Source: Escherichia coli (GTDB lineage Bacteria > Pseudomonadota > Gammaproteobacteria > Enterobacterales > Enterobacteriaceae). From it: a stretch of DNA of 64,000 bases. The stretch lies in the NCBI RefSeq assembly GCF_003334405.1, contig NZ_QOWM01000018.1; one strand, given 5' to 3'. Shown one piece after another: positions 57,064 through 60,814 of this stretch. The notes below the pieces were generated by a model. The model worked only from the letters and a program-made list of their open reading frames with translations. It had not been told where the DNA came from and did no database searches. Every line of letters starts with the position of its first letter. Within the stretch, counting starts at the first letter, position 1. The translations under genes and the position numbers were made by a program.

Positions 57064-57321
57064 ATGGATGAAGAAAGGGGGTTTTCACTCAGTTATGAAC
57101 AACTGACCCGGTTTGCGGAAAAACGCATCCGGGAATGCAATCTGGACAGCCAGGGCGCGATTTATCTCTGCGAGTCAGCCAAAGCCGGAGCCGTGCTGAT
57201 CTTCTGGCATGAACTGGCCATAAATGGCTATGCCTCAATGAATGCCATAAAGAGACAAGAGATCATTGACGCCGACTTTCAGCGCCTCAGAAACCTCATC
57301 TGGCCGGAGGATGACAGGTAA
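57064..57321 (+). CDS. Hypothetical protein (85 aa)
   Basis: ORF coupled by ATGA overlap to the next gene. Confidence 0.3.
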   Translation: MDEERGFSLSYEQLTRFAEKRIRECNLDSQGAIYLCESAKAGAVLIFWHELAINGYASMNAIKRQEIIDADFQRLRNLIWPEDDR

Positions 57322-57911
57322 TGACCCAGAGCCGCCGACCGTCGCCACTGCAGCGGAGAGTGCTGATTGTGCTGGCTGCCCTTGATGAAAAACGGCCGGG
57401 CCCCGTGCTGACGCGGGACCTGGAACGGGTGCTGGAGCGAAGCGGGGAAGCCCCGGTCTACGGGCCAAACCTGCGCGCCTCCTGCCGTCGTCTGGAGGAT
57501 GCCGGCTGGCTGCGTACCCTGCGCGCCCCGAACCTGCAGCTGGCAGTGGAGCTGACGGACGCCGGCCGGGCCGTGGCACAGCCTCTGCTGCTGGCAGAAC
57601 AGGACCGCATCCGGGCAGAACAGCGTGCGGCAGAAGTCGTCGTACTGCCGCTGGTCCCGGCAGCAGGTCTGCCCGCAGGCGGCACTTCTGCCACTGATCT
57701 GGCGGTGGAGCTGAACGGCATGACGTATCAGGCCTGCCGTGGGGATTTTGTGGTGCGTCTCGACGGCAGCACCTGTCTGCAGTTATGGAATAAAGAAGGC
57801 AGAGTGGTACGCCTGGAGGGCGATCCGCTGGAAGTGGCGCAGTGGCTGCAGGCCTGTCACGATGCCGGAATGGAGGTTCGTGTACAGGTTAATGAAAGCG
57901 TCACCCCGTAA
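57321..57911 (+). CDS. Hypothetical protein with winged-helix-like N-terminus (196 aa)
   Basis: N-terminal RRVLIVLAALDEK...LTRDLERVLERSG segment resembles a DNA-binding wHTH. Confidence 0.35.
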   Translation: MTQSRRPSPLQRRVLIVLAALDEKRPGPVLTRDLERVLERSGEAPVYGPNLRASCRRLEDAGWLRTLRAPNLQLAVELTDAGRAVAQPLLLAEQDRIRAEQRAAEVVVLPLVPAAGLPAGGTSATDLAVELNGMTYQACRGDFVVRLDGSTCLQLWNKEGRVVRLEGDPLEVAQWLQACHDAGMEVRVQVNESVTP

Positions 57912-58387
57912 AAACATGCCAGCACGGTTTACACGTTATCCCATGGTGGCAGCCGGTTAACTTTCCTGCGCCACCAGTGGAAAGAGGCCATGCACAGTTA
58001 AGTCTTGATGTTAATCTGCGGCTGTTTTTTGCAATGGCAATCATTGTCTGTGGTTACGGCTATGTAATTATTTATATTTTTATAAAAAATACGCTCGTCT
58101 ATATTTTAACGTTGCCTGGGCTTACATGTCTCAGTTCTTTATTTTCTTTCATGGCATTTAAAGATAACAATATGTGGGTTGATTCTCCTGATTTGACGTT
58201 ATCAGTAATAACAGGCTCTTTTGCGGCTACAGTTATCTTTTATATGTTCTATTTTTTGAGTTATTCCTTTTATCGGATGGGGACGGATGAATAGAAAGGC
58301 CGATGACCTGCATTTAAGTAAGCGGCTAACCGTATTGATATTTACTGAGAGCTCAGTTCAACTCTCCAGCGATAACAGATCGCGTTC

Positions 58388-58515: not shown

Positions 58516-59109
58516 ATGGGAAAAAATCAGGAAGAAAGGAAGCCCCCCATCATTGTGGTGAAAAAACGTCGTACTTTTTCGCCACCTTCCTTATCCGAAA
58601 AAACAGATATTATCGCACCTGCATTTACTGAACAGGCGGCAGAATTCCCCCCCGTCGGAATAAATTCATCTGCCGTCGAAAAACATATCCCCGAAGCACC
58701 AGCCCGGAAGAAGAAAAAGAAAAGACATCGTTTCCCACGTCCCGCCCACTGGACCCGTGAGTATACTCACGAGTGCGTGGAAAAAATAAAGACCCTGTTT
58801 CCTCATCTTCGTGCTGAAGGCGGTGGATTTATTCCCCTGAAAATTGGCATCAGCAATGATATTTCGGCATTTCTGGCAGAAAACCCGGATACAGAACTGT
58901 CCATGGACGAATGGTTCTGTGCAGTGTCCTGCATCACCTCCCGCCGCGTATATCTGCAGCGGACCTCTGTCGCCGGCGTCCCTCGTTATGGGCTGGATGG
59001 TCATCCCGATGGGCAGGTCTCAGAAACTGAAGCACAGAGTGCTGTTCAAAGACTGGCGATAATAGAACAACGGTGGCTCAGGATGAAGGAACGGCAGACT
59101 GAGCAATAA
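58516..59109 (+). CDS. ProQ/FinO-domain RNA chaperone (FopA-like)
   Basis: FPHLRAEGGGFIPLKIGI and YL...G..RYGLDGHPDG match ProQ N-domain motifs (FPHCF...PLKIGI; DLDGNP). Confidence 0.75.
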   Translation: MGKNQEERKPPIIVVKKRRTFSPPSLSEKTDIIAPAFTEQAAEFPPVGINSSAVEKHIPEAPARKKKKKRHRFPRPAHWTREYTHECVEKIKTLFPHLRAEGGGFIPLKIGISNDISAFLAENPDTELSMDEWFCAVSCITSRRVYLQRTSVAGVPRYGLDGHPDGQVSETEAQSAVQRLAIIEQRWLRMKERQTEQ

Positions 59110-59390
59110 ACATTTCAGATAACATCATGACATTGTGTATCAGAGTCTGCTTACAGACTCATGGATGCCACCAAAGGCTCATCAGATGTAAGGCAGAAGC
59201 GACGTAACTGCCTTTTGAAAGGAAAAAAGCGACCGCAAGGATGCAATGGATATCTGCCGCATACTGAAATAAAGTAACAAAAAAATCACCACAATCACGG
59301 GGGCTTCCTTCCTGTACTCAGGCCATACCCCCCGCCCGGATAAATTTCTCAATCAACAATACAATAAAACTGTGGATAATATCATCATGA

Positions 59391-60257
59391 TTAACGCATA
59401 ATTACCCGTGATTCTTTCCTGGTAACGTAAGTACAGTTATCCGGAACCTCCTCCATAATAAAAGACATGGCTCCAATTTTTACATTACTGCCTATTTTTA
59501 CGTTAAGCCCGATAATACACGTATGGGCACCTACATCGACATTATCACCAATAACGATATAATTCTCTCTGCTGTCAGATTCCTTTTCGCCAATGGTCGT
59601 ATTCTGCCGTATAATCACATTCTCACCGATCTTTACATTACCGTGAATGACGACACCTGAATGGTGGGGCAGCACGAGTCCTTTACCAATCTGCGCCCCC
59701 AGGCCAATATCACATCCATACTTTGCCATAAGCGCATTTTTTATCTTGATCGCACATTTTCGTTGTTTTTTATTCCCCGATATATACATTTCATTAGCCA
59801 GACGCCACCACAGAAGAAAACCTCTCTGCCTCTGCATACCGTTCCTGATAAGCCGGTGAAAAACAAACTTATCCCGCATGATAACTTCTGCTTTCCAGTA
59901 TTCCAGAAGATGACGTTTTTTTCCTGATAATAAAAATGTACCAATATGGATATAAGAAATAGGATTTTTTATCAGCATACGCAAATTTTCAGAAAACAAT
60001 GAATACAGATGTATTTTATATACACAGATAAAACCGCGCAACAGACATAAATATGACAGTAGCAATGAAAAAGCAGAGAGTGTGGGTGATACAGAAAAGT
60101 AACTGTCAGACATTAAATCTGATGCATCGATAAACAGACGCCCCAGCAGATGCACCTGTAATGCAACGATTTTGCCGTGTCTGCTACAGAAGTAATACAC
60201 AAATTTCCGGGGATTCTGCCTTAGCATTTTGATATATTCAGATACGGTAAATCTCAC
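59391..60257 (-). CDS. Serine O-acetyltransferase-like (CysE/WcaB-type) left-handed beta-helix acyltransferase
   Basis: C-terminal hexapeptide repeats (GLGAQIGKGLVLPHHSGVVIHGNVKIGENVII) preceded by a helical segment arranged as in CysE; AT-rich; start uncertain. Confidence 0.6.
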   Translation of the reverse strand: MRFTVSEYIKMLRQNPRKFVYYFCSRHGKIVALQVHLLGRLFIDASDLMSDSYFSVSPTLSAFSLLLSYLCLLRGFICVYKIHLYSLFSENLRMLIKNPISYIHIGTFLLSGKKRHLLEYWKAEVIMRDKFVFHRLIRNGMQRQRGFLLWWRLANEMYISGNKKQRKCAIKIKNALMAKYGCDIGLGAQIGKGLVLPHHSGVVIHGNVKIGENVIIRQNTTIGEKESDSRENYIVIGDNVDVGAHTCIIGLNVKIGSNVKIGAMSFIMEEVPDNCTYVTRKESRVIMR

Positions 60258-60277
60258 TTTAGATGGACTAAGGACTT

Positions 60278-60619
60278 ATGATATTTACAAAATTTCAATC
60301 TCTGACCCACAAGATAGATACAATGATTATTCATGATATTAAACGGGAGATGCCATTGAAATACGGGTTATACAGGGTGGCCAAATGGTTTTCCTGGCTC
60401 GCCCACACAGGAATTTTTTGTACCTTTATTGTATATATAGGGTTTTCCATCATCACTCAGCACGCCGGCCAGGAACTACCGGAGACGTTTAAACATGGAT
60501 TCGCCTTGACTTTCTGTTCATTTGCAACAGCAGCTCTGGTCAGCCAGTGGATCGGAGGCGGATTACATAGCAAACTGGAAGAAAGAATTAGGATGAAGTG
60601 GCAGAACCACGCTCACTGA
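60278..60619 (+). CDS. Small hypothetical membrane protein
   Basis: 113-aa ORF with two hydrophobic segments; start likely internal. Confidence 0.3.
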   Translation: MIFTKFQSLTHKIDTMIIHDIKREMPLKYGLYRVAKWFSWLAHTGIFCTFIVYIGFSIITQHAGQELPETFKHGFALTFCSFATAALVSQWIGGGLHSKLEERIRMKWQNHAH

Positions 60620-60814
60620 CAGGATCACCCGGTCAGTGCACAGAGGGCGGGTGGCGAAGACTCCGGTGACTGCTCCCCGCCCGCATTGGGCGAGGATTCT
60701 CGGCGGTTCTTCGCTGACTGCACCATACCTCCCAGACAAGACTGTTCGGAACATATCGCTCTTACTGGGGGAGCAGTAAACTAAAAATGAAAAGTATTAT
60801 TCCTGACTGGAATT

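Follow-up and report, generated by a model that had tools for sequence, protein, structure and literature searches.

The 64,000-nt stretch of Escherichia coli DNA considered here (contig NZ_QOWM01000018.1 of assembly GCF_003334405.1; hereafter the window) carries, near its end, a gene for a 195-residue acetyltransferase. Judged from its sequence, the protein is shaped like a serine acetyltransferase (SAT) and catalytically equipped, lacks the features that define the SAT CysE, and bears an active-site signature of the type found in WcaB. It is very probably a functional acetyltransferase, distinct from CysE, that acts on an acceptor other than serine. The protein belongs to a small, uncharacterised family that temperate phages carry next to tail-fibre genes and that is consistently tied to phage host-range cassettes. 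We tentatively propose, with slightly more doubt than confidence, that it is a WcaB-like O-acetyltransferase of envelope glycans that masks receptors.

Fold, active site and family of the acetyltransferase

An AlphaFold2 model based on 75 family sequences (mean pLDDT 94.8, pTM 0.88) placed five helices at residues 6-87, followed by a left-handed beta-helix. SAT structures aligned with the model over 168-172 residues, and the five predicted helices superposed. An initial annotation, made from the letters and open reading frames without database searches, had described a helical N-region and a beta-helix arranged as in SATs, and the model bears out this arrangement within the 195-residue protein. 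Relative to the SAT N-domain, the first helices are missing; the helices that are present correspond to the distal ones, and the serine-binding Asp-Pro loop is absent. The beta-helix domain stops about 10 residues past its last coil, with no C-terminal tail. Pfam returned Hexapep (E 5e-5) and Hexapep_2 in the C-terminal part, and SATase_N was undetected in the protein. With these hexapeptide repeats and a catalytic general-base histidine (His105), the protein shows the superfamily hallmarks of left-handed beta-helix (hexapeptide) acyltransferases. The gene and its parts are as follows.

59391..59978, minus strand: acetyltransferase gene, 195 codons plus stop (ATG 59978-59976, stop 59393-59391); RefSeq label 'serine acetyltransferase'
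59718..59978, minus strand: N-terminal five-helix domain, residues 1-87, with the motif W..E[VI]I...F..RL...WWRLANE
59394..59717, minus strand: left-handed beta-helix catalytic domain, residues 88-195, from Pfam, the AlphaFold2 strands and the CysE/WcaB alignment
59664..59666, minus strand: His105 codon, counterpart of the catalytic His158 of E. coli CysE and of WcaB His74; codon checked by translation
59709..59711, minus strand: Asp90 codon, counterpart of CysE Asp143; Asp or Glu throughout the family

We aligned the acetyltransferase with E. coli CysE and WcaB (both from MG1655), an EpsC-like protein and 12 family members, and mapped the CysE residues onto it. His105 is nearly invariant in a separate alignment of 75 family sequences. 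The remaining CysE positions correspond as follows.

CysE D92: Q51 in the acetyltransferase
CysE P93: gap
CysE H145: G92
CysE D157: P104
CysE R192: N139
CysE H193: Y140

The columns that hold the CysE residues binding the amino and carboxyl groups of the substrate (D92-P93, D157, R192 and H193) are thus occupied differently here and vary across the family. The protein ends in ...RVIMR, while CysE runs about 40 residues longer and ends in GDGI; no tail with a terminal Ile is present. In CysE, this tail is needed for feedback inhibition and for binding of CysK (PMC13040420). Since the EpsC-like control sequence retains every one of the CysE substrate residues together with the tail and the terminal Ile, the alignment is able to detect CysE features; WcaB, like the family, is without them. 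As read from these columns, the acceptor pocket would be unable to bind serine in the CysE manner.

Profile searches gave a similar picture. The NCBIfam models for CysE scored the protein far below their cut-offs (TIGR01172, 75 against 210.65; NF008349, 57.6 against 397), as did those for WcaB (TIGR04016, 55.6 against 194.65; NF007564, 55.9 against 196). The highest NCBIfam score, 85.7 bits, came from the EpsC model NF041874, whose cut-off is 150. Three homologues (P0025, P0034 and P0085) and a Pseudomonas relative (P0066) likewise fell below the NCBIfam cut-offs. Against a hidden Markov model of the family itself, members scored 208-272 bits, WcaB 96.5, CysE 71.3 and WcaF 27. A profile search of 1.84 billion cluster representatives returned 75 clusters at E <= 1e-30 and 7912 at E <= 1e-10, which delimits a small family inside a large SAT-like branch. 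Four longer proteins (P0121, 944 aa; P0140, 599 aa; P0143, 594 aa; P0156, 686 aa) contain 3-6 consecutive stretches that match the family profile, and these could be either tandem fusions of acetyltransferase domains or mis-assembled repeats.

Taken as an activity, the name 'serine acetyltransferase' is not supported for this protein: the serine/cysteine-binding residues and the CysK-binding tail of CysE are absent, and the CysE models are far from their cut-offs. The view of the initial annotation that this is not a housekeeping CysE stands, because the protein neither falls within CysE nor carries an intact feedback tail. The name is probably a misannotation spread by similarity of fold, and it stands in hundreds of plasmid and prophage records.

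Linkage to phage tail-fibre cassettes and to glycan loci

A profile match and gene linkage also tie the family to phages, a connection that the initial annotation missed. The protein matched PHROG 2154, a family of unknown function, over essentially its full length (213.5 bits, E 3.3e-63; its residues 20-193 align with positions 5-179 of the 185-position profile), and its homologues P0025 and P0034 scored 218 and 284 bits. In AFDB, one homologue is titled 'putative serine acetyltransferase of prophage CP-933T'. Prophage relatives that lie next to tail genes are 52-59% identical to the plasmid protein: in a P2-like prophage, P0034 has gpU on one side and the tail-fibre assembly gene on the other; P0020 lies at the edge of the tail module in a Buttiauxella prophage; and in E. 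coli chromosomes P0025 follows tail-fibre genes. A family gene convergent with a tail-fibre assembly gene (tfa) is seen in the deposited genomes of a P1-like Punavirus, of Hafnia phage yong2 and of Citrobacter phage phiNP, and also in P2-like prophages. In the Peduoviridae genome ESSI2_ev040, the relative follows an integrase gene and an Abi-family gene. Across IMG/VR, where a scan yielded 80 loci in 24 clusters at ~90% protein identity, a convergent tfa gene was found within 1.5 kb at 65 loci and in at least 14 of the 20 clusters with enough downstream sequence.

A P2-like prophage (L006 8009-9838) and a P1-like phage (L028 4012-5841) share a block of 1830 bp at 93.3% identity. It comprises the acetyltransferase gene, tfa and, from the tail-fibre gene, the 3' end, which encodes the receptor-binding tip. 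The sampled P2-like and P1-like flanks otherwise share three matches of 98-195 bp at ~74-76% identity, all within the fibre gene. The paper describing the P1-like phage-plasmid JL22 independently reports that the P1 U/S region is replaced by 'sacF', a family member, and tfa, and calls the reason for the gene's presence unknown. The shared block and the JL22 replacement therefore indicate that the family moves with host-range cassettes, and the block itself is one such mobile cassette.

Toxin-antitoxin genes also occur at these loci. In E. coli chromosomes (L002-L005 7662-7803), a 56%-identical homologue stands, next to copA, where a tail-fibre-rich prophage remnant ends, and a hok/gef-like gene of 46 aa precedes it by 200 nt; in phiNP, hicAB adjoins the family gene. 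Toxin-antitoxin genes thus recur beside the family on phages as they do on plasmids (see below).

One relative points to the cell envelope. P0066 of Pseudomonas (Ectopseudomonas) mendocina is 49% identical to the acetyltransferase, carries the N-terminal motif of the family and lies inside a cluster for the lipopolysaccharide (LPS) core, its start overlapping the preceding GT2 gene. Upstream are RfaP/WaaP (456 bits, cut-off 170), Kdo-kinase-like genes and a carbamoyltransferase gene; downstream are MsbA (807, cut-off 602), Mig-14 and hldE-like genes. Among other chromosomal relatives, that of Rosenbergiella is divergent from an OafA-type acyltransferase gene and that of Intestinirhabdus adjoins ugd and the arn operon. 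Two contexts adjacent to a DUF3413+sulfatase gene were first read as LPS-related and then discounted: the flanking gene order is that of yejH-rplY-yejK-yejL-yejM, and the Proteus copy lies beside an integrase gene. In E. coli, this gene order is followed by tRNA-Pro, an island integration site.

Gene extent, plasmid setting and allele variation

The initial annotation had assigned the gene to 59391-60257. A 288-codon frame from a GTG does fill these positions on the minus strand without interruption and carries hexapeptide repeats in its C-terminal part; coding behaviour, however, is confined to the distal 195 codons (59391-59978), and the 288-residue protein is rejected. In pO55 and other plasmids, RefSeq annotates a 98%-identical gene of 588 bp that corresponds to 59391-59978 and encodes 195 residues (WP_001418189.1 in pO55 has the same extent). 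Homologues at 45-93% identity are 180-200 aa long and begin to align at the same N-terminus, and the relatives returned by a search of 5.8 billion proteins have this same length and start and cover 85-100% of the 195-aa query. In-frame stops occur within 300 nt upstream of the start in a 93% allele, in an 87% allele and at all four prophage or genomic-island homologue loci examined, so that the 93 N-terminal codons of the longer frame are not coding; these 300 nt stay open solely in nearly identical alleles. On an IncK2/Z plasmid, the end of a RelE-family toxin gene lies 103 nt ahead of the start. Given family-wide conservation of residues before the next internal methionine (M34), where L24 and E31 are nearly invariant in the 75-sequence alignment, translation would begin at or near the ATG at 59978. 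The gene is therefore 279 nt shorter than first drawn, and the excluded part is probably a 5' leader and promoter region shared with the divergent gene at 60323.

The window itself is a conjugative plasmid of the I-complex, IncK/Z-like. Scores above curated cut-offs were obtained for ExcA, a surface exclusion protein of IncI1 type, for DotA/TraY, for a MOBP relaxase and for an incFII-family RepA; an IncK2/Z plasmid encodes a RepA 96.9% identical to this one. These genes confirm that the acetyltransferase is plasmid-borne, as had been suggested, and its GC content of 0.40 against 0.516 for the window agrees with the AT-rich context that the initial annotation described. Among 5426 complete E. 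coli genomes, the plasmid allele was found in 170, and 171 of its 172 copies were on plasmids.

Ten carrier plasmids were inspected (IncI-gamma/K1, n=4; IncK2/Z, n=3; IncFIB, n=2; IncFIA/FIC, n=1). In the eight I-complex or pO55-type arrangements among them, a ProQ/FinO-family gene adjoins the acetyltransferase gene, most have a toxin-antitoxin pair beside it, and the replicon lies 1-3 kb away where the stretch shown included it. On the IncFIA/FIC plasmid pRHBSTW-00863_3 and the IncFIB D1 plasmid B, the neighbours are insertion sequence elements or transposase genes instead. The initial annotation had pointed to the lack of cysteine-biosynthesis partners, and indeed no cysteine-biosynthesis gene is annotated next to the acetyltransferase gene in any of the ten. 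In R64, the reference IncI1 plasmid, the gene is not present in the region after repA. In comparison with nine loci of phages or islands, homology extends no further than the borders of the plasmid gene, with no tail-fibre or tfa remnant beside the plasmid gene; the plasmid therefore retains no trace of how the gene was acquired.

Around the gene, the window contains the following.

59979..60257, minus strand: upstream part of the 288-codon frame, not coding; GC 0.366
58516-59109, plus strand: ProQ/FinO-family RNA-chaperone gene, 197 aa, convergent with the acetyltransferase gene
60323-60619, plus strand: small gene, membrane-protein-like by eye, 98 aa, divergent; 98% identical to WP_001419651.1 elsewhere
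60818-60952, minus strand: YacB toxin gene remnant, of which the last 45 codons remain (97.8% identity); the yacA antitoxin gene is missing
57932-57997, minus strand: DUF6404 gene remnant, of which 22 codons remain

The 197-aa ProQ/FinO protein has a weak match to phrog_21591. In every I-complex plasmid examined, the acetyltransferase gene has a FinO-family gene on the same side. We rejected it as an obligate partner: in the IncK2/Z arrangement it is only 37% identical and co-oriented with the acetyltransferase gene, opposite to the orientation in the window. The 98-aa protein had no PADLOC or PHROG match. The IncI-gamma/K1 and pO55 arrangement includes its gene; HBI02, with an IncK2/Z arrangement, lacks it, so this gene too was rejected as an obligate partner. 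A 196-aa protein encoded at 57321-57911 on the plus strand, with no NCBIfam match at E <= 1e-10, has a 66%-identical relative in a Salmonella genomic island (L011 12522-13499), and about 5 kb from that relative the same island carries a 67%-identical homologue of the acetyltransferase; the two genes may travel together.

Pairwise Nei-Gojobori comparison of four plasmid alleles gave ratios of nonsynonymous to synonymous divergence (dN/dS) of 0.05-0.13 at dS up to 1.3, values that point to strong purifying selection on the plasmid acetyltransferase. The gene is intact in the window, yet flanking accessory genes there are decayed or lost: besides the two remnants listed above, the colicin Ia, immunity and yagA genes, which in p53_B and pO55 lie between the yacB and DUF6404 points, are absent. 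Some relatives are altered. P0004, a 93% allele that represents a cluster of 341 sequences, reads LPRHSG where the window reads LPHHSG, placing Arg at the position of the catalytic His105; this may be an inactive or a sequencing-level variant, and another 93% allele (L020) keeps the histidine. Truncated, unannotated copies holding only residues 1-108 occur in many large plasmids (H54-H57).

Proposed function, alternatives and comparison with known systems

We infer as follows what the enzyme acetylates, where in the cell it acts and which phenotype results. At the cytoplasmic face of the inner membrane, the enzyme would use acetyl-CoA to acetylate a sugar hydroxyl on an envelope-glycan intermediate, as in a WcaB-like reaction; the acceptor would most plausibly be an intermediate of LPS-core or O-unit type. 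The exported surface structure would be altered and the phage receptor thereby changed, so that phage tail fibres, and possibly conjugative adhesins that read LPS, would find the carrier cell harder to target. On a prophage, such an effect would be lysogenic conversion; on a plasmid, the host would gain protection and the plasmid with it. The LPS core is where P1 and P2 adsorb. We favour this account because the SAT/WcaB-type core is without an amino-acid pocket, one relative sits in an LPS-core operon, the gene has been transferred together with the fibre tip, and the prophage enzyme NeuO, described below, offers a precedent. Among the acceptor classes that the initial annotation had offered (antibiotics, sugars and signalling molecules), the context evidence favours sugars. 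Its statement that the role was unknown agrees with the literature, in which we found neither a published role for the acetyltransferase nor a functional study of any family member.

Several observations weigh against the envelope-glycan account. No acceptor has been demonstrated for any family member, and published mentions of members call the role unknown or simply 'fitness'. Direct linkage of the family to a glycan operon is seen in one lineage only (Pseudomonas); other chromosomal relatives are orphans or lie at island or integrase borders and are not counted as support. The plasmid neighbourhood is without a glycosyltransferase, flippase or tail-fibre gene and holds toxin-antitoxin and ProQ/FinO genes instead. 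O-acetylation of the E. coli LPS core is, to our knowledge, not a well-described modification. Similar phage spots often hold defence genes, and one relative is next to an Abi gene. Finally, in a simple consensus scan of 59000-60800 no sigma-70-like site was found on the coding (minus) strand; the match total equalled the shuffle expectation, and this promoter and terminator scan was uninformative.

In a different reading, the gene is a phage or plasmid 'moron' used in conflict between mobile elements, its product acetylating an intracellular nucleotide, metabolite, tRNA-linked group or protein and so blocking phages or disarming host defence. The gene does occupy accessory hot spots: in P2-like and P1-like phages it points towards the end of the tail-fibre operon, and its neighbours elsewhere include the integrase and Abi-family genes of ESSI2_ev040, hicAB in phiNP, a hok/gef-like gene in E. 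coli, and yacAB or Phd/RelE genes on plasmids, where it is solitary and without glycan partner genes. However, none of the 5027 models of PADLOC-DB 2.0 matched the protein, two homologues or both neighbours, and a catalogued defence system therefore finds no support. The 1.8-kb co-transfer with the receptor-binding tip of the fibre and the Pseudomonas LPS-core operon point to the cell surface instead. Beta-helix enzymes of SAT/WcaB type are known for small hydroxyl acceptors and sugars, not for macromolecules. Weighing these points, we consider conflict by intracellular acetylation unlikely. An enzyme that detoxifies xenobiotics or antibiotics, resembling Vat/CatB or LacA/Maa, would be a cargo gene product of the conjugative plasmid, and galactoside and maltose O-acetyltransferases do match the beta-helix acetyltransferase weakly (E from 1e-4 to 1e-5). 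That similarity is slight, however, and similarity to Vat/CatB does not exceed that to other beta-helix classes, making such a role improbable.

A genuine but divergent serine O-acetyltransferase, whose O-acetylserine would boost the cysteine supply or induce the CysB regulon free of feedback control, is the reading nearest to the RefSeq name. The residues with which CysE contacts the amino and carboxyl groups are all replaced or deleted here, although the EpsC-like sequence keeps them; the C-terminal tail and terminal Ile are gone, the CysE and EpsC models score below their cut-offs, and the family profile ranks WcaB above CysE. Nor would this activity give a rationale for linkage to tail-fibre cassettes, and we regard it as very improbable. 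Decay might be read into the truncated copies on large plasmids, the deleted or truncated neighbours in the window and the Arg-bearing representative of one 93% allele cluster, as if the gene were a functionless remnant carried next to the replicon. Purifying selection on an intact frame excludes a dead remnant of this kind; the confidently predicted fold and the retention of the gene despite loss of flanking accessory genes argue in the same direction, and the chance of a remnant is in our judgement very slight.

An extension of the envelope-glycan account follows from the type of plasmid. I-complex thin-pilus PilV adhesins recognise LPS-core disaccharides of recipients (PMC10654706). Given that seven of the ten sampled carrier plasmids are of this thin-pilus type, the enzyme could edit the donor's own LPS. 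The family might thus be a receptor editor used for 'self-marking', which each mobile element would combine with an LPS-reading adhesin of its own. In phages the partner would be the tail-fibre tip, with which, together with the tip's chaperone, the gene moves in a single cassette; on plasmids the enzyme would acetylate donor LPS so that carriers are no longer bound, in analogy to a phage that masks the receptor of its own fibre. We consider this speculative and improbable; if true, it would constitute a previously unrecognised layer of superinfection or entry exclusion at the adhesion step, common to phages and conjugative plasmids. Receptor modification in its general form would, if correct, be a widespread function newly assigned to P1-like and P2-like phages and to resistance plasmids of IncK/IncI type, and would matter for the host range of phages, for phage therapy and for the spread of plasmids. 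If it is not correct, the protein is an ordinary accessory acetyltransferase of unknown substrate.

Among characterised proteins, WcaB is the best scorer against the family profile. It is likewise a short cytoplasmic beta-helix acetyltransferase of the SAT-like branch, with the catalytic His in an H-H/G motif and the acid kept, and it too is without the CysE Asp-Pro loop, D157, R192/H193 and C-terminal tail; by product names, it acts on sugars linked to undecaprenyl pyrophosphate (Und-PP). The two differ in that identity is only 28% and the WcaB models score far below their cut-offs, and the family has ~50 extra N-terminal residues, which form the added helices, and a one-residue insertion in the last coil. 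WcaB is encoded in the wca cluster, whereas the acetyltransferase gene is solitary on mobile elements, its neighbours in the window being the ProQ/FinO gene, the small membrane protein gene, toxin-antitoxin genes and repA. CysE (PDB 1T3D, 4N69 and 6WYE) has the serine/cysteine-binding residues, first helices, tail and Ile that the acetyltransferase lacks, and the latter is also without a cys gene context. The likeness to EpsC-type SATs (NF041874) extends over the C-terminal core; the EpsC-like sequence keeps the CysE substrate residues and the terminal Ile, and the family does not.

PHROG 2154 includes the JL22 gene 'sacF', the gene 'sat' from Citrobacter phage phiNP and, in E. coli O157:H7, the gene of prophage CP-933T. 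These members are 47-56% identical to the plasmid protein and share its length and motifs; the window copy differs in lying next to the replicon of a conjugative plasmid with no tail-fibre gene adjoining. The functional precedent for the proposed role is NeuO of prophage CUS-3 (PDB 3JQY), whose gene adjoins a tailspike gene. This prophage-encoded beta-helix enzyme is a polysialic acid O-acetyltransferase that O-acetylates the K1 capsule and thereby modifies a surface polysaccharide used as a phage receptor (PMC3046976).

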